Notes: generated from the sequence alone by a model not told the origin. A stretch of DNA of 64,000 bases from an uncultured Alphaproteobacteria bacterium (GCA_905233975.1 CAJOGD010000006.1:19609-83608); one strand, 5' to 3'; counted from the first letter of the stretch, positions 4,827-39,903 are shown. Numbers and translations are program-made.

Positions 4827-4861
4827 TTGACTCTCCTTGTTCCTTTCACTGGCCGCTAACA

Positions 4862-5050
4862 AAAACACCACCGAAAACGTGTGGTTGGAGGTTCAAGACA
4901 ATTTAAGGAAATTGTGTGCTTATTTTGACAGGCCCATTGGACCCACATTATTCGCATCCCTCCAACCAATTTTGGTTGGAGTTTTTGTCGATAACATGAC
5001 TCGACATCCTTAAACGGGTCTTGACACCCCATCGGCAGAATTCCCACCGA
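4862..5050 (-). ncRNA. Putative structured leader RNA, copy upstream of paralog A
   Basis: Minus strand GTGGGAA...GGGG; pairings tcaagac/gtcttga and tttaagga/tccttaaa; internal hairpins tgtcga/tcgaca and ctccaaccaa/ttggttggag. Confidence 0.55.
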
Positions 5051-5180: not shown

Positions 5181-5438
5181 CTATTTTATCACTGCCGTTT
5201 TAATCAGTGTTAAATCTTCTTTGATGCCGTCGATTTTTAATTGTAATTGCCCTATTCCGGTTTCCAAAATGGTCGTCCGGTTTTCAAGTGTCGTTATGCG
5301 TGTCGTCAATCGGTCAAGTTCGACCAGTGCGTTATCTTGGCGGGCGGCCCAATATATAAGGCCCGCAATAAAGGCGATTAAAAACCAACCACTGCGCAGT
5401 GTGTCGATAATACCCATAAGGCCGTTAGACTTTGGCAT
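5181..5438 (-). CDS. Small membrane protein with coiled coil (phage lysis/haemolysin XhlA-like?)
   Basis: One TM helix followed by a heptad coiled coil; last gene of the virion operon. Confidence 0.5.
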   Translation of the reverse strand: MPKSNGLMGIIDTLRSGWFLIAFIAGLIYWAARQDNALVELDRLTTRITTLENRTTILETGIGQLQLKIDGIKEDLTLIKTAVIK

Positions 5439-5631
5439 TGTTACGCCCCCTTTCAATTAAAGTTTCAATTTGATGCACGATTGCGCGTGCGCCCTCCAGC
5501 GCGCGCAGTTCGCCGTCCGTCGCGTGTGGCCCCAGCACCCTTTCGATTGTTATCCGGCGCAGGTGTTCAATGACCGCCCGCCCGGACGCGCCCGCAAAAG
5601 TGCGGGCGTATTCGTGTGCGATTTTTTCCAT
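5425..5631 (-). CDS. Bbp19-like phage protein
   Basis: 'YARTFAGASGRAVIEHL...LEGARAIVHQI' is typical of the small gene following BPP-1-like portals. Confidence 0.65.
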   Translation of the reverse strand: MEKIAHEYARTFAGASGRAVIEHLRRITIERVLGPHATDGELRALEGARAIVHQIETLIERGRNNAKV

Positions 5632-5641
5632 ATGTGTCCCC

Positions 5642-6868
5642 CTATATCAATGTGCCGTTTTCCGCAACCATTTGCGCAATCGGCGCAATGTATTTTAATT
5701 CCGCGTCACTGTGCAGCGATATTTTGTCGATTACGCCACGCCGCGCAAGGATTTGCAATCCGCGGTCGCAAAGCGGTCTGATAAATTCGTGCAACAGTCG
5801 GCCATACGTCGCACCCAGTATGCGCAGCATGTCTGCGTTCCGCGCAAGTATTTCCGTCGCCGTCATTTCTTTGTCCGAAAGCGTGCCGATTCTGTCCGCA
5901 AGCATTGTGTGGCGGATGCGTTCGCGCAGGTCTTTTAGAATTATTTGCGACACATCAAAATTTGCACCCGTTGCAAGTGGCGTAAGGCCGGTACTGCCCA
6001 CCGCTTTGGGGATTATCGCACCGGGGGTAAGGTTTATGTTGCCAAGGTTTATGACGCCGTCATCGTCGGCCTGCCATATGCCACTGACCGCGATGGTTGC
6101 GTTTTTTAGGACAAGTTCGACGACCTTGTTCGCGGTTTTGATATCAGGTAGCGCCCGCAGCACCGGGCCGCGGCCGTACTGTTCGCCGCTTGCCAATGCC
6201 CAACGAAAGATGATGTATGGGTTCGTTTCGAATGTGCCACGTGACACGATATTATTTTCCAAATCGCCACCAACATCTATCCATGCGGTAAATTCCGTAT
6301 CGACCAATGCCTGAACCAGGCGCAATTGGTATTCCGGATTTTGCTTTATCGCGTCAAGGATTGCGCGTGGCGGCGTCCATTCGGGATAACGACGCGCAAT
6401 ATCTTGGGCACAAAGCGTTGCCGTATGAAAGACCGCGTTCGGCAAAATTGCAATATCTGACATTGGGATTGCGGTAAATGTAAATGCACTTGCCGCGCCA
6501 ATCGGCGATTCAGACATAAACAGACATGCCGTTCCCATCGTCACAAGATCCATATAGCATTGATGAATCGTCGTATAAAAATTCGATTCGTTCAGGTTTG
6601 AACGCAGTGCCATTGTCGCCGCAACCGCGTCCGGTGATTCATTTGATTCCGGCACAAGGTTCAGCCACAATGATTCCGGCGGTGTGAGTAATGAATACAT
6701 GCATGCCGCCAAATTATCCGCCGCGTCCGCCGCCGTTCCATCGAACAATGTTGCGATTTCTTCGTCGGTCGTTGGCATTGTATAGCGGCGCGCATCGGAC
6801 CAACGCTTTATCCATGGTTCGCGCAAGGCCAGCGCACGTGAATACATTTTTTGTAAGTCATATTTCAT
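5642..6868 (-). CDS. Phage portal (head-tail connector), T7/BPP-1-like
   Basis: 'LFDGTA', 'RW...GEQYGRGP...ALPDIKTAN', 'MTATEI..R' motifs. Confidence 0.9.
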   Translation of the reverse strand: MKYDLQKMYSRALALREPWIKRWSDARRYTMPTTDEEIATLFDGTAADAADNLAACMYSLLTPPESLWLNLVPESNESPDAVAATMALRSNLNESNFYTTIHQCYMDLVTMGTACLFMSESPIGAASAFTFTAIPMSDIAILPNAVFHTATLCAQDIARRYPEWTPPRAILDAIKQNPEYQLRLVQALVDTEFTAWIDVGGDLENNIVSRGTFETNPYIIFRWALASGEQYGRGPVLRALPDIKTANKVVELVLKNATIAVSGIWQADDDGVINLGNINLTPGAIIPKAVGSTGLTPLATGANFDVSQIILKDLRERIRHTMLADRIGTLSDKEMTATEILARNADMLRILGATYGRLLHEFIRPLCDRGLQILARRGVIDKISLHSDAELKYIAPIAQMVAENGTLI

Positions 6869-6883: not shown

Positions 6884-7732
6884 TTAGAGTTTAAATTCTG
6901 TGTTCGCAATAAATTGGCGAACGTTTGTTCCAATTGGACGCATCGGCACAGATTGGCATAAAATTGCCCCGGCGACCGCGTCCAGCCCATCGTCATGTTC
7001 GCCGCCACCGTTCGGTGTCCATGCCAACATTTCTGAGATAAAAGGTGTTTGTGTTATGCGTCGATGCGCATAAAGGCGACCGGTCGTAAGCAACGGTTCA
7101 ATCGCGTCCAAAATTCTATCTTCTTTGCGGCGACTGTTGGTTATAGGGCGAATTTGTATTTCATAGCCCGCGTGCGCAATTGTGTCGCGCATTATTTCCG
7201 GCAACGCCGCACCGATTCCGTTTGTTTCCACGCAAAGCGTCCTTTGCCGGTGCATGCGCACAAACGAAAGCACATGTTCACACTGATATGCCAACGGGTA
7301 TTCTATGCCGTCCGGCACGACAAGATATGTTATATCGTGGATAAACACGCGGTGGCCACGATCGTCACGATAGGCAATAACGCAAACACTGTTGTCTGAA
7401 TTGCGTCGGCCGCCCGATGGGTCCCAATAAATTATTGCGCCTGTTATCGGGGTTTCGCCGATTCTGCATCCATGCGGGTCAAAATCATCGTCATAGAATT
7501 TGATTCCGCCTGGATCAAGACGGATTTTATCGGGCGCAACGAATTGCAACATCATTTGCGCCGAAAAATGTCTATCGCCGACAGTTTCCCTTATTTTTTC
7601 TATCCTTTCTATTGGAAAAACGGCCGGCCACGCGGAATTTCCGTCCACATCAACGATCGGTATTTTTAATTCCGAATAGCCCGATAAAAAAGGCGTTGAA
7701 AAAACATTTTTTTCGTATACTATGTTTGACAT
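6884..7732 (-). CDS. Terminase large subunit, C-terminal nuclease half
   Basis: 'AWP..F', 'FSAQMM', 'YWDPS', 'VETNG.G', 'KEDRI', 'HDDGLDAVAGA'; GGAG RBS about 9 nt upstream. Confidence 0.85.
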   Translation of the reverse strand: MSNIVYEKNVFSTPFLSGYSELKIPIVDVDGNSAWPAVFPIERIEKIRETVGDRHFSAQMMLQFVAPDKIRLDPGGIKFYDDDFDPHGCRIGETPITGAIIYWDPSGGRRNSDNSVCVIAYRDDRGHRVFIHDITYLVVPDGIEYPLAYQCEHVLSFVRMHRQRTLCVETNGIGAALPEIMRDTIAHAGYEIQIRPITNSRRKEDRILDAIEPLLTTGRLYAHRRITQTPFISEMLAWTPNGGGEHDDGLDAVAGAILCQSVPMRPIGTNVRQFIANTEFKL

Positions 7733-9272
7733 GGACTTTACTCCCAAAACTTTACCAACGAATTTAGAGGCCGAACAGGCCGTATTGGCCGCGGTATTGA
7801 TGAAAAACCGGGCACTTGAAAAAATTTCTGAATTCTTGCGGCCCGAAGATTTTTCACACCCCGCGCACCAAGAAATTTATAAACTTGCCCTACGCCAGTT
7901 CGCGGCCGGGATTCCGTTTGATATAATCACCGCGAAAACATACCTTGACCAACAGGGAACTTTAGAATCGGTCGGTGGTGTAGAATACCTTAGTCAGTTG
8001 GCAAGTGCCGGCGCAACCGTTGTAAATGTTGAACAGTATGGCCGTATCGTACATGAAAACGCCGTTCGACGTGAATTGATTGACTTTGGCCAATCAATTA
8101 CAGATGCCGCATTTGTTGAAGACCTTGATAATCCGGTGTCCGCACAAATTGAAGCGGCGGAACAAAAACTTTTCAACCTTGCCATGACCGGGGACACAAC
8201 GCGCGATGTTGTCCCGATTGCGAACGCGTTAAAAGATGCATTGGCCGAGGCAGAGATCGCATACAAGGCCGACGGAAAACTTTCCGGGCTTACCACCGGG
8301 CTTACCGATTTAGATCGCGCAATAAGTGGCATGCACAAATCTAATTTACTAATTATTGCCGGACGCCCGGGTATGGGAAAAACCGCACTTGCCATGAACA
8401 TCGCGTTCAATGCGGCAAATGCAATTTATTCTGGGCGCGCGAACGAACAGTATAAGGGTGCCGTTGCATTTTTCAGTTTGGAAATGGGCGCGTCTGAATT
8501 GGCCGCACGTGTTTTATCGTCCCAATCCAGAATTTCCGCATCGGCAATGCGCGAAGGGTCGCTTACCGATGAAGATTTCCTTAAAATGGCCCAGTTTTCC
8601 GACGCAATCGGACGAATCCCGTTGTTTATTGATGATACGCCGGGCATGTCTTTGCCAATGATTCGCACGCGTGTGCGGCGTCTTGCGCGAAAATATAATG
8701 GCATCGCGTTAATCGTTATCGACTATTTACAATTGTTGACATCGCCGGGCGGCAAAAACAAAGATAATCGTGTTCAGGAATTATCCGAAATTACACGCGG
8801 CCTTAAAATGATGGCCAAGGAATTCAATGTCCCGGTTATCGCACTATCGCAATTATCGCGCAGTGTTGAAAGTCGCGATGACAAGCGTCCACAACTTGCG
8901 GATTTACGTGAATCGGGGTCTATTGAACAAGATGCCGACATTGTTATGTTCACTTATCGTGAAGAATATTATTTGCAAAATCGCGATCCGTCGCGGCGGC
9001 TTTCTAATACCCCGAATGAAAAGTCTGTTGATTCGTGGCAAAATCGTCTTGAAAAGGCCAAAGGCAAGGCAGACATTATCATCGGCAAGAATCGTCATGG
9101 TCGAACAGATACAATTAACGTCGCCTTTTTGGCAGAGTATAGTTTATTCGACAACCTTAATGAAATGGCCAACCGCGTTCCAGAATTTGCACCGGACACG
9201 CCGGCCCAATCTGAACCCGGGGATATACCAACACCAATTGATATTGATGCAATCCCAGATGATTTTGAATAA
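7731..9272 (+). CDS. dnaB: Replicative DNA helicase DnaB
   Basis: EAEQAVL, Walker A GRPGMGKT, FSLEM, IDYLQL, LSQLSR, DLRESGSIEQDAD. Confidence 0.95.
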   Translation: MDFTPKTLPTNLEAEQAVLAAVLMKNRALEKISEFLRPEDFSHPAHQEIYKLALRQFAAGIPFDIITAKTYLDQQGTLESVGGVEYLSQLASAGATVVNVEQYGRIVHENAVRRELIDFGQSITDAAFVEDLDNPVSAQIEAAEQKLFNLAMTGDTTRDVVPIANALKDALAEAEIAYKADGKLSGLTTGLTDLDRAISGMHKSNLLIIAGRPGMGKTALAMNIAFNAANAIYSGRANEQYKGAVAFFSLEMGASELAARVLSSQSRISASAMREGSLTDEDFLKMAQFSDAIGRIPLFIDDTPGMSLPMIRTRVRRLARKYNGIALIVIDYLQLLTSPGGKNKDNRVQELSEITRGLKMMAKEFNVPVIALSQLSRSVESRDDKRPQLADLRESGSIEQDADIVMFTYREEYYLQNRDPSRRLSNTPNEKSVDSWQNRLEKAKGKADIIIGKNRHGRTDTINVAFLAEYSLFDNLNEMANRVPEFAPDTPAQSEPGDIPTPIDIDAIPDDFE

Positions 9273-9366
9273 GTGACCACTAACACTCGCCACTATTCAC
9301 TTTTTACTTGCTATGGTTTAAAAAATTCCTTATCCTTTTGTCAAGGTTTATACCAAGGAGTGTCTT

Positions 9367-10374
9367 ATGGCCCTAGAAGAAATTATATTTCCCAATAATA
9401 TTCGTAATATCAGATTGGCGGCGGGTATGAAAATGACCGAACTTGCGCGACGGTCTAATTTATCTTTGTCCGCTGTGTCCAAGATAGAAAAAGGTGTCCG
9501 GCGCCTTAATCAAAAGCAATTACTTAATATTTGCAAAATCTTGGGCTGTAAATTGTCCGATATTTTCATCAAGGATACTGACGAGGTTGCATCAAAATGG
9601 CAAGATGAAATCACACGCCGTATGAATGATAACGAAGATGGCGGGCTAAAGATTTTTGGTAGTGGTTTGCGCAAAATACGTCAGCAATCCGGCAAAACCA
9701 TTGCCCAGGCGGCAAAAGACGCCGGCATGACACTATCGGTGTATCATAAAATAGAAGTCGGCCAGCGCGAGGTCTATAAAAACGAAATCGAACCATTGGC
9801 TCAATCTTTCGCGCATTCTGTGGAAAGTTTGTTCAATAAAATTGCCGAACTTTACAAATCTGGCGAACTGACCAAACAAATGAACAAGGTCAAAGAAGGC
9901 GTCAAGGCCGTTTTGGTACCGGGTGGAACCGATGATTTGGACGACGTACATGGCCATTTGTACAGTGCAAAACTTTATGATAACGCACGCAAAAAATTGG
10001 TTCCGGTATTTGGAAAGCCCGAAGGCAAAGCGATTGCTTTTGCGAAATCGGATTCAAATATGATTGTTGCACCGGCTAATCTCGAAGGCCGTCGTGATGT
10101 GTATGCAATCATACCTAACTCTAAACGTTTGGGCGGCTTTATACCCGAAAACTCTTATGTCTTCGCTGATATCAAGGCGGCGGTGGCCCCCGGGGATTTG
10201 GCGGTCTTTATTGATACAGACTTTAATTCCCTTAAATCAGAAGAAGCCGTTGTTGCAAATATTGCCATTGTGCGTAAAGATGCCAAAGGCAAAATTTATG
10301 GTCAAATGGTATCTCCGGACGAAAAGATTTCTGCCCAAACTATGCACAAGGTAATAATGTTTATCAACGAATAG
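9367..10374 (+). CDS. XRE-family regulator with two HTH domains and a degenerate S24-like C-terminus
   Basis: Two Cro/C1 HTHs ('ELARRSNLSLSAVSKIEKG' and 'AAKDAGMTLSVYHKIEVG') and a 'VPVFG...YAI...PGDLAV' tail. Confidence 0.8.
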   Translation: MALEEIIFPNNIRNIRLAAGMKMTELARRSNLSLSAVSKIEKGVRRLNQKQLLNICKILGCKLSDIFIKDTDEVASKWQDEITRRMNDNEDGGLKIFGSGLRKIRQQSGKTIAQAAKDAGMTLSVYHKIEVGQREVYKNEIEPLAQSFAHSVESLFNKIAELYKSGELTKQMNKVKEGVKAVLVPGGTDDLDDVHGHLYSAKLYDNARKKLVPVFGKPEGKAIAFAKSDSNMIVAPANLEGRRDVYAIIPNSKRLGGFIPENSYVFADIKAAVAPGDLAVFIDTDFNSLKSEEAVVANIAIVRKDAKGKIYGQMVSPDEKISAQTMHKVIMFINE

Positions 10375-10398
10375 ACAACCAAGGAGGGGGCAAACATC

Positions 10399-11052
10399 AT
10401 GAAGCCAAAGGCAAGTGTCGTTGCACAAAAACTTTTGAACCTGTACCGCCAGGCGCACGTTATTGTTGGCGGCTGGTCGGCGGTTAATCGTGTTTTTGTT
10501 GATGAAGCCACCGATGATGTTTTGCATGAATTAAAGGATTTGCCGACCGGTAAAATGTTGGCCGAACATATTGCCAACCTGCGATCGGGGGCAACACCTA
10601 TGGATTCTATCGCGCACGAATTATTGCCATATGGGGGGCTTATGGCCGAATCTTTGGCAACGGCAAGCATTGATGAATCCGAATTACAACAGTTAATTGC
10701 CGCCGTCGATGCGTTTAGCCCAGATTCTGATGGATTAAAGAATTTTATGGATACGGCAATAATAAAAAAATTCGGGGACGATTGGATTACAATGGCGCAA
10801 AACGCATTGATGGCAAGCCCCGATGCACTGCGGAAATTTGATGATATTGTTCGTATTTCTACGGCATATCGTTTGTGGGATGAAGCAAATGCGATACTGG
10901 CCGCCCCGGCCACAGATCGCGTTCGTGCCCATCTACAGGTGGATATGCCGGAATACGAAACATACCTGCCGATGTTTGGTGACGAAGGCAAAGAGTTGTT
11001 GCATCGTTTGCATGGGTTAACAAGTTCTATGCCATCGCACGATGCGGCTTAG
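10399..11052 (+). CDS. Hypothetical protein
   Basis: 217 aa ORF with AAGGAGG RBS; stop overlaps the terminase N-half stop. Confidence 0.75.
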   Translation: MKPKASVVAQKLLNLYRQAHVIVGGWSAVNRVFVDEATDDVLHELKDLPTGKMLAEHIANLRSGATPMDSIAHELLPYGGLMAESLATASIDESELQQLIAAVDAFSPDSDGLKNFMDTAIIKKFGDDWITMAQNALMASPDALRKFDDIVRISTAYRLWDEANAILAAPATDRVRAHLQVDMPEYETYLPMFGDEGKELLHRLHGLTSSMPSHDAA

Positions 11053-11642
11053 GCCGTTTTGTATATCGTGTCCAATGTATGCGGGGTACCGATATATATC
11101 ATCGTGCCGTTTGGTGATAGTATAAAATCAAGTTCCCTTAATCTTTCCCGCAAAATTTGCCTCTTCTTGATTGTATTAGATGTGTTTGGCACCTCTACAT
11201 CATCGCATATTATTAAATCCGCACGCATTCCGGTTATGTTTCCATATATGCCCTGGCATACAACTGATGGTTCGCGAATCCCAAGTGGTCTATTTATGGT
11301 AATTTTGTTTTCCGCCCATTCACGTTTATTCTTTGGAATCATTCCGGCACACCATGGATGATTTTCAAGAATATGACGTATATGCATAACCATTCTTGTT
11401 GCCAAATGTGTTTCCGCAGATAAAATCAGAATACGCGTTTCTGGGCGCAAAAACAAAACACATGCGGCAAAAATTCCAACAATCGTTGATTTCCCCGAAT
11501 GCCGGAACGCCATAAGCAGACCACGATGCGAATCGCCGTTTATTACATCAACAAGGAAATTCGTCATTTGATAGTGATGCAACGGCGTTTTATACCCCAA
11601 CACATTGTTCCAAGCCTCTAAAAATTCGTTATACTGATTCAT
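11049..11642 (-). CDS. Terminase large subunit, N-terminal ATPase half
   Basis: Walker A 'AFRHSGKST', Walker B 'ADLIICDDVE', coupling motif 'YIGTPH', followed by a stop. Confidence 0.85.
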   Translation of the reverse strand: MNQYNEFLEAWNNVLGYKTPLHHYQMTNFLVDVINGDSHRGLLMAFRHSGKSTIVGIFAACVLFLRPETRILILSAETHLATRMVMHIRHILENHPWCAGMIPKNKREWAENKITINRPLGIREPSVVCQGIYGNITGMRADLIICDDVEVPNTSNTIKKRQILRERLRELDFILSPNGTMIYIGTPHTLDTIYKTA

Positions 11643-11650
11643 TGTATAAA

Positions 11651-11995
11651 TTAAATTAATTTATCAAGGTGTTCCAAAATCGATGTCAGCATATTTTTTT
11701 TCTTGGTTGTGATACCCGCCAATTTATTTAGGTTCGCACGTTTTTTGTTTTCATACGGTGTTTCGGTTTCGTCCTTTATACGCGCCAACACGTTTTTTTC
11801 GGTAAGTCCATTATTCGACATACCCGACGCCCCATATTTTGCACGTTGCGCCCCCAGAACTTTCTTTACAATATTGCGCTTTTCTGCATCATCTGCGGCA
11901 ATTTCCGCGATGATTTTGTTTTTATTTTTTTCGGCGGTATTTTTATTTTCTTGATAGTTTAAAATATCCGTCACATCTGAAAGAATTTGTCCCAT
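11651..11995 (-). CDS. Putative internal virion protein
   Basis: 'GAQRAKYGASG' motif; position after tail tubular B as in podoviruses. Confidence 0.55.
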   Translation of the reverse strand: MGQILSDVTDILNYQENKNTAEKNKNKIIAEIAADDAEKRNIVKKVLGAQRAKYGASGMSNNGLTEKNVLARIKDETETPYENKKRANLNKLAGITTKKKNMLTSILEHLDKLI

Positions 11996-12009
11996 TTTAT
12001 ACTCCATTT

Positions 12010-13716
12010 TTAAATTTGATATCTTCCGTATGTCGTCACCGATAAGATTTTCAGTGGCAAACTGTCTGTTGTTGAAATTGTCCATGGTGCGTCTATTAAA
12101 TCCGCACTTGTGCCAAGAACATTGACCGACACATCACCGTCAAAGCCATCGGAATCATCAGAATAAATATCATTAGGTAAAACCCCGCGTTCGTCATTTA
12201 TAAATAATGTTTTGGTATTATAAACACGCACAGTTATTTTCGTAATCCTGATGTATTTTGCATTATGCCCCGATGTTAAAAGCGGCATTCCCTTTGCTGT
12301 TGCGGTATATGCATAATTTGTGGCATCAACAAATTCCGAATCATCGAAATATTCAAGGAAAAAGTCATCGCCACGTTTAACCACAACAAATGTTTTTCCA
12401 TCACATACGGCCACAGATTTAAATTCGCCATTTGTGGTATAACGTCCCCACGCTGATATTCCTTGGGCCACATCATAGTTCAAAACAGCCATATTTCCCG
12501 CAGACATCACAACAAAAAGTTTTTTGGTGTTTTTGTTATATGCGATGTCAATCGGTTCGGTTATCAGGTGTTTTGATAAATCGCACAAATTATTTGCGTT
12601 ATAATTTTCGCCCATTTCATCAAGCCCAAGTTGGCGAATATCTGGTCCAACCTTGGAAACAAATATTGTTTTGCCTTCCATTTGTTGTGGCGGCAAATAT
12701 TTATCTGCGATACTGCCCATAGAAGTGTGCATTTTTATATCCACAGATTCCGGCGTTAGTGGCTTATTCGAAACCGCCCATTCGCCTTCGGACGTAAGTA
12801 TTTGCAAATTGTCACTGCTGACCAATGTGCATACATGCTGTCTGCGATCAGATAACAGTGTAAAAAATATCGCCTCGTCATCTAAACCTGTTCCAAGGTT
12901 GAAATTTTTATGCTGGCCTACGTGCGACATCCATATTCCGCCCGGCCATGATTTGGCACCACCAAAGACAAGTCTATCTTGGTGAAATGTTATTGCCGAT
13001 GGCCAACCACGCCGCGGGCTAAATACGGCCTCTTGCCAATCTGACACCGGATCATTCGGCAAAGTATATGCGCCGTTGCATGTGGCGATTACTTCGGTTG
13101 GACTTACATATGTATTAACCAACCAACTTTTGCCAATGGCAAATAAATGTCCCCCAACATTATCCGCGGTCCAAAAATTTTCATTGGTTGTAAAATGGAC
13201 TTTACCGTCAGAATACGTAATGGTTATTGTTATGCCTTCGGAATCTTCGAATCGCATAAACGGTATTTCAACATTATGCGTATCCGATGAAACGGAAAAT
13301 GCGAAATACCTGATTTTAAACACACCGTTTTCATAATAAAAAATTCTTGGGGCATAATCTGGGTGCACAAATATCATCGTTCCGAATCGCTGGGCATACC
13401 GAATCTTGGGTATATCTGAACTGGTCCAAGGCGTTAACACATCTTGGACAAAGGTACCGTTTGAAAACACCCTGATGCGACCATTCATAATGGCCAATAT
13501 ATATTCTTCGGTTTCTGATACAGAAAAAGCGACCAGTCTTGCATTCGCCAGCAGTTGCGGCCCATTCTTTAATCCGGCCCTGCGAACAAGTCCGCCACCA
13601 CTGCACACATCAAAATTTTCCATATATGCAAGTCCATGAATATTTTCATTTTCGACAAAATTTATTGAAACTTCACCGTCTGCGAAAGATTTCTGTGTTT
13701 TTATAAAATTCACCAT
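12010..13716 (-). CDS. Tail tubular protein B (nozzle)-like
   Basis: 'SFADGEVS', 'GGLVRRAG', 'WPSAITFHQDRLVFGG' motifs. Confidence 0.85.
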   Translation of the reverse strand: MVNFIKTQKSFADGEVSINFVENENIHGLAYMENFDVCSGGGLVRRAGLKNGPQLLANARLVAFSVSETEEYILAIMNGRIRVFSNGTFVQDVLTPWTSSDIPKIRYAQRFGTMIFVHPDYAPRIFYYENGVFKIRYFAFSVSSDTHNVEIPFMRFEDSEGITITITYSDGKVHFTTNENFWTADNVGGHLFAIGKSWLVNTYVSPTEVIATCNGAYTLPNDPVSDWQEAVFSPRRGWPSAITFHQDRLVFGGAKSWPGGIWMSHVGQHKNFNLGTGLDDEAIFFTLLSDRRQHVCTLVSSDNLQILTSEGEWAVSNKPLTPESVDIKMHTSMGSIADKYLPPQQMEGKTIFVSKVGPDIRQLGLDEMGENYNANNLCDLSKHLITEPIDIAYNKNTKKLFVVMSAGNMAVLNYDVAQGISAWGRYTTNGEFKSVAVCDGKTFVVVKRGDDFFLEYFDDSEFVDATNYAYTATAKGMPLLTSGHNAKYIRITKITVRVYNTKTLFINDERGVLPNDIYSDDSDGFDGDVSVNVLGTSADLIDAPWTISTTDSLPLKILSVTTYGRYQI

Positions 13717-13738: not shown

Positions 13739-14260
13739 TTAGAAACGACTATCTATCAATGAAAAATTTTCTATTCCGGTATTCACAGATGTTGTGCTGT
13801 CTATGAATTTTGCAGTTTGTAATTCATTTTCATAAAGCGCCACCAGTGTTTTAAACACCGTTTGGTCAGAAATAAGTGGCATACAAAATTCCACTGCAAG
13901 TTTTGTCGCAACCAGTGACGCAAAATAACTTGGGAATTCATTCGGTATTACGCGAACTATTGCGGTTATGGTTAATGTATCCGCACCTGACACAATTTTA
14001 TTTTCCATCAATCGACCGTTGGTTTTGATAACCCTTAACACATCAGATGGTATTACAAAGTCGCCGTTTCCATCGCGTGTCAACGTATATGTGCGACATG
14101 CAAAACGCCAAGGATGCATTGCCAACAATGTATCTATTACAAAGTCAACAAACGTCCGCCCAAGTTTTGCCGCCGCGGTATCATCTGACAATGATTGAAT
14201 TGGATTTTCACCCAATTTCAACAATGCCATTGAACACAAATCTATTTTCGTTAGCATCAT
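13739..14260 (-). CDS. Tail tubular protein A (adaptor)-like
   Basis: 'IDLCSMALLKLGENPIQSL', 'HPWRFA', 'FASLVATKLAVE'. Confidence 0.85.
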   Translation of the reverse strand: MMLTKIDLCSMALLKLGENPIQSLSDDTAAAKLGRTFVDFVIDTLLAMHPWRFACRTYTLTRDGNGDFVIPSDVLRVIKTNGRLMENKIVSGADTLTITAIVRVIPNEFPSYFASLVATKLAVEFCMPLISDQTVFKTLVALYENELQTAKFIDSTTSVNTGIENFSLIDSRF

Positions 14261-14274
14261 TTTCCCCTTATTCT

Positions 14275-14314
14275 AAAAAAATCACAGGGGGCGAAATATC
14301 CGCCCCCTTTTTTA
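14275..14314. terminator. Intrinsic terminator after the capsid/decoration genes
   Basis: agggggcg-aaatatc-cgcccct hairpin flanked by A and T tracts. Confidence 0.65.
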
Positions 14315-14587: not shown

Positions 14588-15406
14588 TTATTCACCGCAC
14601 TTAAGACGGACAATTCCCGTACCGTCAATCAAAACTGCGCCCTGGGACATGCTATTGCTAATAAAGTGCGCCGCACGTTCACCATGCCACGAAATATCAG
14701 TCTTGACTTCCTGACCGCACGCATGACCGATGCTTGATGCATGATAGATAAAGCAATCACGATGCGTTGACGAAGATAACGGCAATCCGTTATGCATCAA
14801 CCACGTAATACCAAGCCATCTTTTAACTTCGCCACCATTGATGAATGGCAAATCAGACCCAACATATTCCGCAGATGAAAATTCATCGATACCAAGCAAT
14901 TCATTCCATTGTTTCACACCAACAACGGCAAATCTGCGACCATCGTCGGGCACATCGTTTTCATTCAATTGTTCCAATGCACCAAGCACAATGGTCTTGG
15001 TCAAACCGGTCGAATAATCACCGGAATTCTGGGTCGTTGCTGTCATGGCCGAAATGATCAATTCATCGGTTTTACGACCCAATGCATATGCACCTGCCGC
15101 CGCAACAACACGACGTTCATCGATATTGACTTTCAATTCATCCAACGCATCAACCCAATCACCCGCATAGTAATCTTGCAAATTGCATTCAACGGGTTCA
15201 TGATTCAGATTCATAACCGGCACGATACCATGACGCGATTTCGTACTGGCGGTACCTTTACCAATTTTCTGAAATGTTGTAGATTTCCCAACAACCCCAG
15301 ATTTACTGCGGATTGTGGAACGCAACTTTGTTCCCATTTGTTGATACGCCAAATGGACATCAGCTTCGAATTGTTTCACAAATACTTGATCTATGGAAAC
15401 AGACAT
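14588..15406 (-). CDS. Major capsid protein (podoviral type)
   Basis: 'FVKQFEADVHLAYQQMGTKLR', 'YALGRKTDELII', 'NDVPDDGRRF', 'WLGITW'. Confidence 0.9.
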   Translation of the reverse strand: MSVSIDQVFVKQFEADVHLAYQQMGTKLRSTIRSKSGVVGKSTTFQKIGKGTASTKSRHGIVPVMNLNHEPVECNLQDYYAGDWVDALDELKVNIDERRVVAAAGAYALGRKTDELIISAMTATTQNSGDYSTGLTKTIVLGALEQLNENDVPDDGRRFAVVGVKQWNELLGIDEFSSAEYVGSDLPFINGGEVKRWLGITWLMHNGLPLSSSTHRDCFIYHASSIGHACGQEVKTDISWHGERAAHFISNSMSQGAVLIDGTGIVRLKCGE

Positions 15407-16040: not shown

Positions 16041-16697
16041 TCATGAATATAATTTTTTAAAACCGTTTTCAATTTTACGTATATATTCTGCATCGTGATC
16101 ACGCCAATATTTTGGATCACGCATCATATTACGCAAATCAGAATCAGATAATTTTTCCGGGGCATTACCATCCGTTTCGACATGCGGTTCCATTGATTGC
16201 ATCATCTTATAAACGCCTTGGATTCCTTGGGGTGTAGAGCACAATTCGTTAAACGCATCGGCCGGCAAAAATCTTTCACCAAAAGATTTTATTGCGACAA
16301 AAGCATCATGCATTTTTTCTTCGCCACCAAAAAAATTTTGCAATTCTGACATCGCTTTTGTTTCTTGTTGCATTGAAAAAATTTCTGAAATTATCGGAGA
16401 TAAAAATTCCTGTGCAATACCATAAATTTTTTCTACCTGGGAATTTGTTAAACCTATTTTATGAAATTCTTGACGCACATTTTCATTATCAAACAGTTCA
16501 CTATGCGGATATTCTTCTGGATTTTCCGGAACACCAATCGCCCGCATAAAGCGGCTTTTCGTCGCTTCATCAGATTTTTCATCGGGCACAGTTATCATTC
16601 CACCAATCTTCTTTTCAAGTTCATTATAAGATTTGATTAACGCATCGCTATTAAGTGTTCCATCTTCGTTTAAAAATTTTTCTGGTACTTTTTCCAT
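16041..16697 (-). CDS. Capsid assembly scaffolding protein
   Basis: 'VPEKF...LIKSYNELEKKIG', 'GVPENPEEY', 'MMRDPKYW'. Confidence 0.8.
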   Translation of the reverse strand: MEKVPEKFLNEDGTLNSDALIKSYNELEKKIGGMITVPDEKSDEATKSRFMRAIGVPENPEEYPHSELFDNENVRQEFHKIGLTNSQVEKIYGIAQEFLSPIISEIFSMQQETKAMSELQNFFGGEEKMHDAFVAIKSFGERFLPADAFNELCSTPQGIQGVYKMMQSMEPHVETDGNAPEKLSDSDLRNMMRDPKYWRDHDAEYIRKIENGFKKLYS

Positions 16698-16698
16698 T

Positions 16699-16887
16699 TT
16701 ATTTTCCTTTTTGTTGATTTGTTTTTTGCAACATATAAATTCCGCCAATAGCAATAAATGCCTGAATTGTGGCGAACAAATCCGAATCGCCTACAAGATA
16801 TGCACATATCGCAGACAATATCCCACACGCGGTCATTATTTGTGTTCGCCGATTCGCAAAGAATCCACCATGTATGAATTTACTCAT
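16699..16887 (-). CDS. Holin-like two-TM protein
   Basis: Two short hydrophobic helices and a basic C-terminus, next to the cell wall hydrolase. Confidence 0.5.
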   Translation of the reverse strand: MSKFIHGGFFANRRTQIMTACGILSAICAYLVGDSDLFATIQAFIAIGGIYMLQKTNQQKGK

Positions 16888-16910: not shown

Positions 16911-17321
16911 TTAGGCATAAAACAAAAGTCCGTCTATGTCACATACGTATCCACGTGCAACCGCCCACGACGGTAAGATTTCTACACGATGAAACATTGT
17001 TGCGTGCCGACACATATCCGGCAAATTACCATGCAACATGGTTTGGGCCACACGCAAACACATTTGGAAGTCGCATCGTGATGTATCCACAGACAAAAAT
17101 TCGTGACGTGTTGATTCGGAATTTAACGATTCGAATCGATGTGCATCAGATATAACGTGTCTAATATTTTTTATATCGTGTTCGGCGGCGTTAAAAATCA
17201 TTGACGTTAACGCCTCTACTACGCGCAAAGACTTTGCAAGCGTTTCGGCATATACGACACGTGCGACCATATATGCCAATGTCATATTTTCGCTTTGCGC
17301 TTCTATCAATTCCAACTGCAT
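16911..17321 (-). CDS. Cell wall hydrolase (SleB/Hydrolase_2-like), putative endolysin
   Basis: 'ARVVYAE' (catalytic Glu), 'ATMFH...PSWA', 'LLFY'. Confidence 0.7.
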   Translation of the reverse strand: MQLELIEAQSENMTLAYMVARVVYAETLAKSLRVVEALTSMIFNAAEHDIKNIRHVISDAHRFESLNSESTRHEFLSVDTSRCDFQMCLRVAQTMLHGNLPDMCRHATMFHRVEILPSWAVARGYVCDIDGLLFYA

Positions 17322-17335
17322 GATTTTCCCCATAT

Positions 17336-17389
17336 AAAAAAAACCACGCGGATGCGTGGCATAAAAAAATCCATACCCGAAAGTATGAA
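17336..17389 (-). terminator. Two consecutive intrinsic terminators in the leader of the virion operon
   Basis: Minus strand ttcatac-tttcgg-gtatgga+T7 and ccacgc-atcc-gcgtgg+T8. Confidence 0.7.
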
Positions 17390-17417
17390 CCTATAATATC
17401 TCCTGTTGATGTTCTAT

Positions 17418-17446
17418 AGTGTATCACAAAAGCGGCACAAAGTCAA
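17418..17446 (-). promoter_or_regulatory. Sigma70 promoter of the virion operon
   Basis: TTGACT-17 nt-TACACT on the minus strand. Confidence 0.65.
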
Positions 17447-17480
17447 GGGTTTTATAAAAATGCGCGGTTTCCATAGGGGT

Positions 17481-18161
17481 TCACATGGTTATTTCATCGC
17501 CATGAATTAATAAATATTCTGTTCCGCGTCGAACAACCAACGCACCCGAATCATTTATTCCTATCAATTCCACCATTTCGCCACGATATTTAACCAGGCC
17601 ATTTATACCAACCGCAAAAGACATCCACGCATTACGCACCGAATCGAATTCTGCCCTAATCCATTTGTCTAATTTTTTGGTTAATTGCGAAAAGAAATCC
17701 GATATATCCGCATTTGTGTATTTATCAGCCCGCGTTGTTTCATATTCTTGGACGGTCGGATTTGAATGTATGTTAATTCCGATTCCGATTATAACGAATC
17801 GCCCCGCATATTCGATTAAAACGCCCGCAATTTTCTTGCCGGCCACCAGTATATCGTTCGGCCATTTTATGGAAGATTGCACACCGAAACATTCAAGCGT
17901 TTCCGCAATAGCGACCGCCACCGCATACGAAAGTCGTGGATCACGTTCCGGTGAATTAAATATAAAACTTGCATACAAATTTCCATGATGCGAAACCCAT
18001 TTGCGGCGATACCGTCCACGTCCGTCTGATTGCGCAAGGGCCACAATCACACTGTGGTCGCGCGCCTCACCTTTGGCAATAATATCGTATGCATAATCTT
18101 GCGTACTTGATATTTTATCAAAAGAAAAAACTTTATATCCGGCCAAGTTTGAAAATCCCAT
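17481..18161 (-). CDS. birA: Biotin--[acetyl-CoA-carboxylase] ligase
   Basis: 'SSTQD', 'QSDGRGRYRRKW', 'IKWPND', 'KKIAGVL'; start uncertain. Confidence 0.9.
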   Translation of the reverse strand: MGFSNLAGYKVFSFDKISSTQDYAYDIIAKGEARDHSVIVALAQSDGRGRYRRKWVSHHGNLYASFIFNSPERDPRLSYAVAVAIAETLECFGVQSSIKWPNDILVAGKKIAGVLIEYAGRFVIIGIGINIHSNPTVQEYETTRADKYTNADISDFFSQLTKKLDKWIRAEFDSVRNAWMSFAVGINGLVKYRGEMVELIGINDSGALVVRRGTEYLLIHGDEITM

Positions 18162-18552
18162 CTGTGTTTTTGATAAAATCGCGTCCATATAATTTGCGCA
18201 GCCCGTATATGGCGGTTTCCACACTGTGCGTTGTCGCGTCGGGAGAATACCCCAGTGCAACCTTTAGATCATTCGCCGACATGCCGCCGCTTTTATAAAG
18301 TAATGTAACAATTTGTGTCTGGGCGGGCGACAGCGAAACCGGTTTGTTGAATACATCAGATATTATTTTTTCACTATCCATTTCCGAAATTATTATGGAC
18401 TTTAATGCGGCCACAGGAATTGACGGTTCAACATGCAAATCATCAAAATTCACGTCACAAAGCAACGAATTTTCGGTCAATGTCGCACCCAGTTCACCCA
18501 ACACGTGACGCCAAACCATATCCGATGTAAAAATCTTTATACCCGATAACAT
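18133..18552 (-). CDS. OmpR-type winged-helix protein with a degenerate receiver domain
   Basis: 'GYSPDATTHSVETAIYGLRK' Trans_reg_C motif. Confidence 0.7.
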   Translation of the reverse strand: MLSGIKIFTSDMVWRHVLGELGATLTENSLLCDVNFDDLHVEPSIPVAALKSIIISEMDSEKIISDVFNKPVSLSPAQTQIVTLLYKSGGMSANDLKVALGYSPDATTHSVETAIYGLRKLYGRDFIKNTDGIFKLGRI

Positions 18553-25740: not shown

Positions 25741-25808
25741 TTTCTTTCTCTCTTTTTTGTGATTCTAACAAATAAACTTTTTTGATTCAAGTGGCGATTT
25801 ATGATAAA

Positions 25809-26777
25809 ATGAATTTGATGACGAATGTTGTATTAGAATCTTTGTTAAAGCCCATATCGGAATTTTATCGACCGTCTTTTGTCGAAGAAATTGCGATAAA
25901 CCACGCCGGCGAAGTGTGGATGCGGCTGCATGGTGCGCGCGTGCCATGGGTTGCGTATGATGCCCCGGTGCTTAGCAAGCAATACCTTATCGACCTGATA
26001 CACACAATCGCAAATATTTATGAACGGCCGTTTGATCCGATTCATGGCGTTCCCGTTGTTTACGCGACACTGCCGGGCAATCATCGATTCAGTGCGATTG
26101 CGGGCCCAAATGTGCAATATGACGAACGCGACATAACCGGCGGTGTGGCATTAAATATCCGCGGTGGCGGCGTGGCGGAGACTTCGTTTGAAAACTATCA
26201 TTTAAAGCATGGCGAAAAATTGATGAAGGTTAAACCGCGTGAAACGAATCGCCCCGACGACCCGTACGACCGTTTGATGTCCGCAATAAATGACGGCAGC
26301 CCGATTCTGATAAGTGGTGCGACCGCAACCGGAAAGACGACTTTCCTTAATCACATGCTGACGTTGATTGACCAAAACAGTCGCGTGATTACCGTCGAAG
26401 ATGCGCGCGAAGTGCGCGTTCCGCAAAAAAATCGCGTTCACTTTGTCCTTTCGCGAACCGAACAGACAAACGATTTTAATTATGCGCGATTGCTGGATTT
26501 GGTTGTGCGTATGACACCGGACGTTATTATTGGTGGTGAAATATCAACGGATAATGCATCGGTGCTGTGGGAAATGTTGGGCACCGGGCACGAACATTTT
26601 TATACAACGATTCACGCCGAAAGTGCCGAAGCCGCCTATGCCGCGTTCGCCGACCGTATTTTGCACACGCAACCCGCGTACAACAGAACCGATTTAATTG
26701 CGGAAATGAAACAGAAAATCCGCGTCGTGCAACTGTCACGCGATGGTTCGCTGCGCGCGGTGACCGAAGTGGTGTAA
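25809..26777 (+). CDS. virB11: VirB11/CpaF-family secretion ATPase
   Basis: 'VEEIAIN', Walker A GATATGKTT, 'TVEDARE', 'RMTPDVIIGGE', 'TTIHAES'. Confidence 0.8.
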   Translation: MNLMTNVVLESLLKPISEFYRPSFVEEIAINHAGEVWMRLHGARVPWVAYDAPVLSKQYLIDLIHTIANIYERPFDPIHGVPVVYATLPGNHRFSAIAGPNVQYDERDITGGVALNIRGGGVAETSFENYHLKHGEKLMKVKPRETNRPDDPYDRLMSAINDGSPILISGATATGKTTFLNHMLTLIDQNSRVITVEDAREVRVPQKNRVHFVLSRTEQTNDFNYARLLDLVVRMTPDVIIGGEISTDNASVLWEMLGTGHEHFYTTIHAESAEAAYAAFADRILHTQPAYNRTDLIAEMKQKIRVVQLSRDGSLRAVTEVV

Positions 26778-38820: not shown

Positions 38821-39903
38821 TTATTCCTTTATCGCCACAGGTCTACCATTTTCCATTTTTTTGATTGTTGTTTCAGAATAAATCAATCCGTCTGCATCTA
38901 TTTGCATTTTGCCACGTGGGCTGATGTATTCTGTTGAAATTTGTTTTATATTTTTTGCCATATCGTCATCATTTTGATTCATTGGCAAACCATATTTTTC
39001 AATAAAGTTCGCAATCAACATAACACTGTCATATGTATTGATACTAGCGGCCTGGGGTGCTGATTTGAACCGTTTCGAATATGTTGTGTTAAATTCATCA
39101 TCGGCATTTTTCAAATCAACAAAAGGCTGGTTATTGAATAATTCTGGATTTTCTGTGAATGCGAAAATCAAGAAAGAACTTAATTCGCTACTATATTCGT
39201 CACGCAACATTTGTTTGGCAAATAATGACAAAGCAGGTTCCACAAGGTGCACAAAAACCATATCAGGTTTATTCTTGACAATTTTCGCGGCATCTGATGC
39301 AAAATCGCGCTGTTCCATATTTACGCGTACCACAGACAACACTTTGATATTATTCGCCTTTAATACGGGCTGTAATGTTTGCAGTATAAATTCACTGGAA
39401 ACATGATTAAAAGTCACTAAAGATATTGTTTTCATATTTTTAAATTTCATGTAATCAACCAATTTTTGCGATGCATCGCGCACAGAATAACTGTTTACAT
39501 AATTGAATTTATTATCACCGATGGAGCTGTCCGCCGCAGATGAAATATGCAAAACTCTATCTTTATCTGCCAATGGTTTAATAATCTTGCCTGTGGCAGT
39601 ATTAAAAGATACAATACCGGCAACATTATCTATCTTTACCAATTTTGTATATATTGAAACGGTCTTGGCGGGCGCCAGTCCCATATCTTCAGCAATAAAT
39701 TCATATTTATATTTGTTTTGTGTATTTTTATTTAATTGTTCAACCGCCATAATTGCACCGTTCTGGGCCGCCGTTCCCATTTGTGCTGCCCCACCTGTCA
39801 AAGGCAAAACTCCACCAATCTTTACCACCGGCTTATCGGATTTTTCACGGTCACAACCCGCGATTGCCAACACCGCACCCAAAACACACAAAAGTTTTTT
39901 CAT
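38821..39903 (-). CDS. LivJ/K-type substrate-binding lipoprotein
   Basis: Lipobox IAGC; 'VKIGGVLPLTG'. Confidence 0.85.
   Translation of the reverse strand: MKKLLCVLGAVLAIAGCDREKSDKPVVKIGGVLPLTGGAAQMGTAAQNGAIMAVEQLNKNTQNKYKYEFIAEDMGLAPAKTVSIYTKLVKIDNVAGIVSFNTATGKIIKPLADKDRVLHISSAADSSIGDNKFNYVNSYSVRDASQKLVDYMKFKNMKTISLVTFNHVSSEFILQTLQPVLKANNIKVLSVVRVNMEQRDFASDAAKIVKNKPDMVFVHLVEPALSLFAKQMLRDEYSSELSSFLIFAFTENPELFNNQPFVDLKNADDEFNTTYSKRFKSAPQAASINTYDSVMLIANFIEKYGLPMNQNDDDMAKNIKQISTEYISPRGKMQIDADGLIYSETTIKKMENGRPVAIKE

Follow-up and report, generated by a model that had tools for sequence, protein, structure and literature searches.

The window analysed here is a stretch of 64,000 nucleotides from an uncultured alphaproteobacterium (GCA_905233975.1 CAJOGD010000006.1:19609-83608), and the system in question is a T7-type large terminase that is encoded in it by two separate genes. 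On the minus strand of the window two open reading frames (ORFs), here called TerN and TerC, represent two consecutive parts of one such enzyme and lie 3.3 kb apart. Between them, on the opposite strand, are the host dnaB gene, a gene for an XRE-type regulator and a gene of unassigned family, Hyp217. The source assembly (1.04 Mb, 11 contigs, 94.8% complete) contains one dnaB, one TerN and one TerC, and no second large terminase gene (terL) was found in it. The organism belongs to Candidatus Enterousia, a group of gut and rumen Alphaproteobacteria. Candidatus Enterousia has been placed in Rs-D84, an uncultured order whose members all have reduced genomes (PMC12306168). The genes and signals of the locus are listed below.

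11049-11642, minus strand: TerN, the N-terminal half of the T7-type large terminase (197 amino acids), with the ATPase core, ie Walker A GKST, Walker B CDDVE and C-motif GTP.
6884-7732, minus strand: TerC, the C-terminal half (282 amino acids), ie about 105 amino acids completing the ATPase fold and then an RNase H-like nuclease with invariant WDPS, ExNG and DDGxD.
7731-9272, plus strand (frame open from 7722): dnaB, the host replicative helicase, sole copy in the genome, recognised by equivalog models.
9367-10374, plus strand: XRE-type regulator of 335 amino acids with two helix-turn-helix domains, a host gene; its C-terminal domain is without a known family.
10399-11052, plus strand: Hyp217, 217 amino acids, the conserved partner gene of the XRE regulator, with no family match.
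7730-7733, both strands: CATG palindrome containing the ATG of dnaB (plus) and the ATG of TerC (minus).
7741-7745 (complement), minus strand: GGGAG, Shine-Dalgarno-like and read from the sequence as serving TerC, 8 nt 5' of the TerC ATG and within dnaB codons 4-5.
11049-11052, both strands: TTAG stop overlap, with TAA of TerN (minus) and TAG of Hyp217 (plus).

A sequence-only reading of the window had described two same-strand halves with host dnaB antisense between them and junctions free of any spacer, and this description stands in each of its parts: the starts overlap in CATG, the ribosome-binding site of TerC lies inside the fourth and fifth codons of dnaB and the stops overlap in TTAG. 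There is no space for a terminator at the stop-stop junction of Hyp217 and TerN. The TerC frame extends to 7747, where an alternative TTG start is not conserved; the ATG at 7732, which gives MSNIVYEKNVF, is kept in 68 of 73 loci. The dnaB ATG is kept in 72 of the 73 and the identical CATG geometry in 67. TerN and TerC each have a start of their own, in agreement with the earlier suggestion of two separate chains. The complete layout (TerN, then Hyp217-XRE-dnaB antisense, then TerC) was found in 71 of 80 Enterousia loci; eight of the remainder are interrupted by contig ends and one (L065, on JAZLBQ010000007.1) is aberrant. One of the 71 lies in a circular long-read chromosome of 958,618 bp (L096), and both junctions are bridged by contigs from other public runs that are approximately 98% identical to the window. 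On these three grounds misassembly of the locus is excluded.

The identity of the two ORFs was established with profiles and solved structures. In the phrog_38 profile, TerN covers positions 273-460 and TerC positions 481-701. The T7-specific model NF033889 (termin_lrg_T7) matches TerN over positions 2-190 with 224.9 bits, compared to an equivalog cut-off of 150; TerC covers the remainder, up to position 500, and scores 110 bits alone, under the 150-bit cut-off. TerN aligns with residues 47-211 of the solved T7-type terminases 8dgc and 4bij. TerC gave no match among the PDB sequences, and its residues 106-262 are matched by PF22530 and PF17289, which describe the RNase H-like nuclease domain. 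Identity to phage enzymes is 33-36% for TerN and 25-28% for TerC, and for identified T7-like phages TerN identity is at most 36%. Both halves keep their catalytic motifs, as had been claimed. GKS(T), CDDVE and GTP are invariant in 11 TerN sequences from six families of the order; D104, E169, D247, D248 and D251 of TerC are invariant in 13 sequences, and WDP, E-NG and DD--D are kept across the order.

Single-polypeptide enzymes with both ATPase and nuclease would have about 460-590 amino acids; here there are two ORFs of 197 and 282 amino acids, a total of approximately 480 compared to 586 for T7. The break falls shortly beyond the C-motif, at a position equivalent to about residue 211 of the 586-residue T7-type enzyme. 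It is therefore inside the ATPase domain and not at the boundary between ATPase and nuclease, where the sequence-only reading had put it: the nuclease begins about 100 residues after the break, and TerC has about 105 residues ahead of its nuclease. The C-terminal end of TerN reads ...GTPHTLDTIYKTA followed by the stop codon. TerN ends 3 amino acids past a conserved IY, and TerC begins about 12 amino acids before a conserved FL.G; across the order the TerN stop falls 1-4 residues beyond the motif IGTPH..(T/S)IY. An unsplit relative, P0003, runs through the junction region as ...GTPHCHDSLYNYSQNPAEPAFLQEF... and continues across the position of the TerN end as ...GTPHCHDSLYNYSQNPAEPAFLQEFHRLYLPI..., and its C-terminal part is colinear with TerC (31% identity). 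The Terminase_6N profile is matched only over the first 115 or so of its 215 positions before the cut, in TerN and in the unsplit P0003 alike. By the colinear alignment with P0003, both the stop of TerN and the start of TerC lie in a variable linker, some 10-15 residues long, and no part of the enzyme has been lost. An intron was considered as the cause of the split and rejected, as no intron family was detected in the five relatives' loci where the gap between the halves is short; at E<=1, Rfam gave only tRNAs and chance hits in those gaps. Neither half has space for an intein.

The split is not peculiar to the window. The TerN profile matches 188 of the 201 genomes of order Rs-D84, with open frames of 197-244 amino acids among the matches listed. 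In Enterousia both halves were found in all 24 other genomes searched, 3.3-4.2 kb apart when on one contig. The halves were found in 36 and 38 of the 41 genomes searched for both and co-occur in most of them. Across the order the two ORFs, both intact, are separated by as little as 174 nt and as much as 15.6 kb. In families f2, f4 and f5 the halves are adjacent on the same strand, with a non-coding gap of 174-379 nt and no gene between them. In family f3 a stretch of 4-9 kb with genes on the same strand, ftsZ among them, separates TerN from portal-TerC, and in the one f6 genome described (G029) TerN abuts the portal gene and TerC was not found. In the window's own family (f1) genera g13 and g16 have the layout of Enterousia. 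Genus g14 has dnaB in the sense orientation and XRE-Hyp217 antisense, genus g15 has TerN-dnaB-TerC-portal all on one strand, and in genera g11 and g12 additional genes place the halves 9.2 and 15.6 kb apart. The ftsZ of family f3 is genuine by its Tubulin and FtsZ_C domains and its C-terminal peptide LEIPAIFKK; it lies directly upstream of portal-TerC (L031:7384-9096; also L032-L035). It is a second essential gene embedded in the cluster, in a family other than that of the window.

dnaB lies between the halves only in the window's own family and in none of the five others, and even within f1 its antisense orientation is not kept. The sequence-only reading had asked for conservation in relatives, and its two components part company here: the split is conserved (188 of 201 genomes with a TerN of about 200 amino acids), and the insert is family-specific and varies in orientation. 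As other families have split halves without dnaB between them, the fission appears older than, and independent of, the dnaB block, which had been proposed as its cause; in f2, f4 and f5 the halves are adjacent with no block at all. From this distribution we infer a single ancient fission, followed by a later, family-specific placement of dnaB and, later still, by the antisense orientation and the shared CATG. An apparent second, independent fission in G365 was rejected, because it corresponds to a run of N in the scaffold.

The intervening genes were examined separately. DnaB scores 599 bits with NF006606 (cut-off 540) and 505 with TIGR00665 (cut-off 385) and is under the cut-off of the phage_DnaB model; with these equivalog matches and the single copy in the 1.04-Mb assembly, the earlier assignment of dnaB to the host is upheld. 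Its orthologues in other families are single-copy, 40-54% identical and far from the terminase in five of five genomes. The XRE and Hyp217 genes form a conserved adjacent pair in four of five other genomes and are there unlinked both to dnaB and to the terminase; the C-terminal 190 or so amino acids of the XRE protein are without a family match. Both dnaB and the XRE-Hyp217 pair are ordinary host genes. The Enterousia DnaB carries an acidic, proline-rich C-terminal extension of about 36 amino acids (9170-9272), and the orthologues of other families align only to about residue 480.

A complex of TerN and TerC was modelled, a check that the sequence-only reading had itself put forward. The interface score (ipSAE) was 0.89 (0.88-0.89 in three runs) compared to 0.16 for the best of three controls. 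The mark used for this score is reached by 58 of 80 solved complexes and by 2 of 110 mismatched pairs, a calibration that is rough here, our own alignments having been used. The runs agreed in at least 86% of contacts, and the partner pLDDT (predicted local distance difference test) was at least 78. In the modelled interface, TerC residues 14-26, which include a conserved LKIP strand, and 58-66 are set against TerN residues 40-47, the strand leading into the P-loop, and 183-197. The result favours the two-chain proposal in the sense that the halves are predicted still to fit together like the intact enzyme; since the family has solved single-chain structures, the model is not proof of binding.

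The terminase halves are part of a T7-like structural cluster on the same strand, the other components of which are as follows.

5642-6868, minus strand: T7-type portal protein (Head-tail_con), directly downstream of TerC.
5425-5631, minus strand: p68, a Bbp19-like small phage protein of 68 amino acids, which follows the portal in unsplit clusters too.
11651-12085, minus strand: small internal-virion-like protein, with a weak phrog_418 match.
12010-13716, minus strand: tail tubular protein B-like (phrog_376).
13739-14260, minus strand: tail tubular protein A-like (PF17212 Tube, slightly under the cut-off).
14286-14308, both strands: strong bidirectional terminator-like hairpin, directly 3' of the capsid gene.
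14588-15406, minus strand: major capsid protein (Phage_capsid_2), 58-63% identical to the capsids of unsplit clusters in other alphaproteobacterial families.
16041-16754, minus strand: T7-type scaffold (capsid assembly) protein, by family match.
16911-17333, minus strand: p140, resembling a cell-wall hydrolase or endolysin, with a weak match here and a clear one in the homologue that follows TerL in an unsplit cluster.

A 91-amino-acid protein (minus strand) accompanies the Bbp19-like protein beyond the portal. The major late terminator of T7 also lies directly after the capsid gene. Host genes flank the cluster, lipoate-protein ligase (LplA) and a tRNA methyltransferase-like gene (TrmA-like) on one side and UPF0102 on the other, and the same LplA and UPF0102 flanks are present in sister genera, ie the chromosomal position is fixed across genera. 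Neither an integrase nor a replication gene was noted in the flanks that were looked at, with no direct search for such genes in the window and no exhaustive one for accessory genes; the evidence on flanking genes is clearest for relatives that carry the unsplit cluster (G303, G239, L237). The portal has 408 amino acids in Enterousia, compared to 488-505 in other families and in unsplit clusters; it is about 90 residues shorter, and its C-terminal part seems to have been shortened.

TerN is a single intact ORF in all 80 loci, and TerC is intact in 71 of 73, the exceptions being one cut by a contig end and L065. The ratio of non-synonymous to synonymous substitution rates (dN/dS) was determined by the Nei-Gojobori method with the six closest relatives. 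It was 0.04-0.06 for TerN, 0.07-0.10 for TerC, 0.03-0.07 for the portal, 0.06-0.12 for tail tube A and B and 0.02-0.05 for DnaB (0.03-0.12 for the cluster genes overall), all of these values being approximate with dS at 0.5-2, near saturation. In 13 genomes, the median identity within the genus was 76% for TerN and DnaB alike; between genera of the family it was 71% for TerN and 65% for DnaB, and between families 50% for TerN and 52% for DnaB. The corresponding figures for TerC were 56, 54 and 33%. Spearman coefficients with DnaB were 0.88 for TerN and 0.90 for TerC, and correlations overall were 0.88-0.92 over 78 pairs, which are not independent of each other. These figures fit strong purifying selection on both halves and co-divergence with the host, a pattern unlike that of decay or of repeated acquisition from phage. 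Decay of the halves, together with misassembly and a second full-length terL, had been named as what would undo the sequence-only reading, and none of the three was found.

Unsplit relatives were sought among 1.84 billion representative proteins. The full-length relatives, of 462-510 amino acids, share 46-52% identity with TerN, and one carries the annotation phage terminase large subunit in Rhodocista pekingensis and Rhodospirillum centenum. Across the class, 298 other alphaproteobacterial genomes were sampled, and 41 of them (approximately 14%) have an unsplit TerL of this clade, mostly in single copy; the unsplit relatives that lie in the T7-like cluster of other Alphaproteobacteria have identities of 45-53%. 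In seven of the eight unsplit loci fetched (L156 and L153 among them) TerL lies behind the capsid and tail genes in the canonical T7 order, ie portal, Bbp19-like protein, scaffold, capsid, tube A, tube B, small proteins, TerL and cell-wall hydrolase. Host genes flank the unsplit modules of G303 (an efflux pump and Lnt/Lon, with an S24 peptidase gene nearby) and of G239 (lysyl-tRNA synthetase among them), and no integrase or replication genes were seen beside either module, nor downstream of TerL in a 44-kb IMG/VR record (L237). The IMG/VR relatives at 43-52% identity (loci L197-L242) are on contigs of about 6-26 kb, mostly 10-20 kb, with the one of 44 kb; the distant matches (32-37%), short fragments aside, are mostly on contigs of 22-39 kb. 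The Enterousia cluster thus represents a rearranged member of a family of compact, structural-only T7-derived elements, and it resembles a gene transfer agent (GTA) in all that sequence can show. The compact unsplit T7-like clusters are themselves candidates for a GTA-like family not described before. The S24 gene of G303 (L160:17495-18130, LexA/CI-like) is about 3.6 kb upstream of the portal on the opposite strand and may regulate the cluster. Downstream of the unsplit cluster in L237, positions 16961-18499 encode a 512-amino-acid protein with a C-terminal 'Cytotoxic' domain (colicin-type nuclease), adjoining Sel1-repeat proteins.

We consider it probable that TerN and TerC form the anciently fissioned, two-chain terminase of a domesticated, GTA-like element derived from a T7-like phage. 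In the history that we propose, terL would have been split in an ancestor of Rs-D84, within the variable linker of 10-15 residues that follows the ATPase C-motif, and the enzyme would have been made as two polypeptides since. TerN would provide the core with Walker A, Walker B and the C-motif, and TerC the remaining ATPase strands, the lid and the nuclease. The two would reassemble non-covalently by strand complementation, with the N-terminal strand of TerC beside the TerN strand leading to the P-loop, and each pair would then constitute one motor subunit, ie an ATPase-nuclease protomer. Such protomers would assemble on the portal as in T7, and the particle would package DNA. Once independent, the halves could be separated by ordinary genome rearrangements. 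In the family of Enterousia, dnaB would have moved between them and the XRE-Hyp217 pair would have followed; in Enterousia and two sister genera an inversion would have made the block antisense and created the shared CATG start. This order of rearrangements is the one suggested by the comparison of layouts.

Several observations weigh against the proposal. The pass of the complex model shows in part the likeness of the halves to the solved single-chain terminases 8dgc and 4bij, so that it speaks for compatibility and not for binding. Production of particles and a GTA-like role are predictions from the gene content. In the window no small terminase, no large ejection proteins and no full tail fibre were recognised, and the selection estimates carry the near-saturation already described. 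Some lineages may have kept TerN and not TerC: in G029 (99% complete) an intact TerN lies beside the portal gene and no TerC was found, profile search included, and G154 (93% complete) has TerN and no TerC match. The cluster is also dispensable, as 13 of the 201 genomes are without TerN, and the five of these that were tested, all five, are also without the capsid gene. G137 was discarded as an example of cluster loss, being also without dnaB and hence probably affected by an assembly gap. In L065, TerC is truncated after about 90 amino acids, with no tail or portal genes nearby; the same locus keeps an intact TerN and the dnaB block and could be either a partial loss of the cluster or a chimeric contig. 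The sole data from RNA libraries are four short unstranded contigs of one run, in which DNA carry-over is possible. They map to 4861-4929 (twice), 8941-9172 (dnaB) and 11273-11508 (TerN, no mismatch) and carry no expression level; stretches that they leave uncovered are uninformative.

The account given by the sequence-only reading was a different one. There, a mobile or rearranged dnaB-XRE-hypothetical block had cut an intact terL, late transcripts of the particle genes running antisense shut off the regulator and dnaB in the manner of an excludon, and being interlocked with an essential gene could shield the module from deletion. Excludons, described in Listeria, are long antisense transcripts spanning divergent genes, and the locus is similar in that divergent genes have overlapping 5' ends and transcription of one crosses the other. 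The antisense arrangement with zero spacer in Enterousia, g13 and g16, the maintenance of the CATG overlap in 67 of 73 loci and a stop-stop junction too tight for a terminator agree with such an account; overlapping divergent starts would also put each promoter in the coding sequence of the other gene, which makes transcriptional interference plausible. However, five other families have the fission and no such block, so that this part is already refuted, and dnaB and XRE-Hyp217 are unlinked elsewhere and so do not form one mobile unit. In g14 and g15 dnaB is in the sense orientation. Protection from deletion is contradicted by the Enterousia genome G078, which retains dnaB-XRE-Hyp217 and the LplA flank and has lost every gene of the cluster. 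A scan of the region gave 30 promoter-like sites compared to 36.5 expected by chance, ie no enrichment. We regard this account as unlikely, and its causal and regulatory elements are mostly not supported. A TTGAAA-16-TACTAT site at 7696-7723 is partly conserved and was not relied on as a promoter.

Some effect on transcription would nevertheless follow from the layout in Enterousia. Because the divergent starts overlap, transcription of TerC and portal must come either from a promoter inside dnaB or from read-through out of TerN, antisense to three genes, and interference with dnaB transcription is physically possible either way. In g15, where TerN, dnaB, TerC and portal are co-directional, one possibility is that the terminase genes ride on dnaB transcription. 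An excludon-like mechanism would be at most a lineage-specific side effect. It cannot have been designed into the system, since dnaB is sense in sister genera and absent from this position in other families; the orientation, which in this respect is unlike that of excludons, varies among sister genera in the manner of a rearrangement by-product.

Three further explanations take the halves to be something other than a working packaging enzyme of a resident element. They might be functionless leftovers of a broken terL in a decaying prophage, to which the lack of recognisable replication, integration, small-terminase and large ejection-protein genes in the cluster, its loss in some lineages and the truncated copy in L065 would all be suited. 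Against this, the ORFs are intact (TerN 80 of 80, TerC 71 of 73) with dN/dS of 0.04-0.10 for the two halves, the catalytic residues show no variation within an order whose DnaB proteins are themselves only 40-54% identical, and streamlined genomes of about 1 Mb purge dead DNA fast; we find decay very hard to credit. An active temperate T7-like phage or satellite, excising and propagating with the help of other loci or of a helper phage, would explain why many of the regions are listed in IMG/VR as viral or proviral contigs of 10-20 kb and why the unsplit form is patchy in Alphaproteobacteria (41 of 298 genomes). It would not be expected to keep a fixed position between LplA and UPF0102 across genera, to contain essential host genes or to diverge in step with DnaB. 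The flanks examined also showed no integrase or replication genes, and in TerN even the nearest genuine T7-like phages share only 32-37% identity, compared to 43-52% for the compact clusters; this explanation, too, is highly improbable.

A third possibility is exaptation of the halves to separate roles other than packaging, for example as an ATPase and a nuclease that each act alone, in defence or in replication-linked DNA processing. The intact TerN of G029 without detectable TerC, the slower evolution of TerN (50% identity between families compared to 33% for TerC) and the repeated position of the halves beside core DNA and cell-cycle genes (dnaB, ftsZ) are in its favour. However, TerN is without a part of the ATPase fold that TerC supplies, most genomes have both halves (36 and 38 of 41), and these are embedded in a capsid-portal-tail set that is lost or kept whole, the TerN-less genomes tested being also without capsid. 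Exaptation therefore has a small share of our confidence, and the fissioned two-chain terminase of a domesticated element is retained as the preferred reading.

The two-chain terminase can be compared to several known systems. With the T7-type enzyme (gp19 or maturase B; NF033889; 4bij, 8dgc) it shares the motifs of an ASCE (additional strand, catalytic glutamate) ATPase, the RNase H-like nuclease and the company of T7-type portal, scaffold, capsid and tail tube A and B genes; it differs in consisting of two genes with the break inside the ATPase domain, in being chromosomal and in vertical inheritance. Some staphylococcal phages reportedly have an intron-split terL. In Jug jumbo phages, terL is broken into two or more ORF fragments that splicing of group I introns rejoins (PMC12880540). 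The separate ORF fragments of terL in the genome are common to those cases and the present one. There, one co-transcript is spliced to give a single polypeptide, whereas here no intron family was detected in the gaps of five relatives, opposite-strand or unrelated host genes lie between the halves over up to 15.6 kb, and TerC has its own conserved ATG and Shine-Dalgarno sequence.

The likeness to GTAs (RcGTA-like elements, BaGTA, FpGTA) consists of a compact set of head, tail and packaging genes at a fixed site, with no replication or integration genes seen, vertical inheritance, purifying selection and an attached lysis-type hydrolase. Unlike those elements, the present one is of T7-like podovirus origin and not HK97- or P22-like, has a two-chain terminase and is only predicted to package host DNA. 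In a 2026 report, the FpGTA of Faecalibacterium is called the first GTA-like element of podovirus-like morphology (PMC12946183). The available text of PMC12306168 makes no mention of phage, terminase, capsid or gene transfer. No T7-like alphaproteobacterial GTA, trans-acting split TerL or description of this cluster was found in the texts searched; the supplementary gene tables of PMC12306168 or PMC12946183 may mention these genes.

Large terminases are usually treated as single-chain motors. A natural two-chain form that is cut inside the ATPase fold and kept throughout an order would provide a ready test system for communication between the ATPase core, the lid and the nuclease. The eye-catching presence of dnaB inside the terminase would be the secondary event and the fission the primary one. 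For annotation, it follows that 'terminase fragments' of about 200 amino acids need not be pseudogenes. The cluster may represent a second, T7-derived lineage of GTA-like elements in Alphaproteobacteria, and the expenditure on it of about 1% of the DNA in streamlined gut genomes of approximately 1 Mb argues for a real benefit. More tentatively, there may be an undescribed alphaproteobacterial family of T7-derived GTAs of about 10-13 kb without host inserts. Its Rs-D84 member, with a two-subunit motor interleaved with dnaB or ftsZ, could perhaps tie particle production to the cell cycle, and we regard this whole idea as speculative.

Two features elsewhere in the window were also recorded. A weak VirB8-like match at 1019-1720 and a T2SSE-type secretion ATPase at 25782-26777 hint at a type IV secretion or pilus-like system nearby. 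Between 38821 and 50310 there are about ten minus-strand ORFs of 243-412 amino acids, eight of them of 355-365. The sole member tested, at 38821-39903, is a periplasmic binding protein (Peripla_BP_6), and the run resembles a tandem array of solute-binding paralogues in a genome of 1 Mb.

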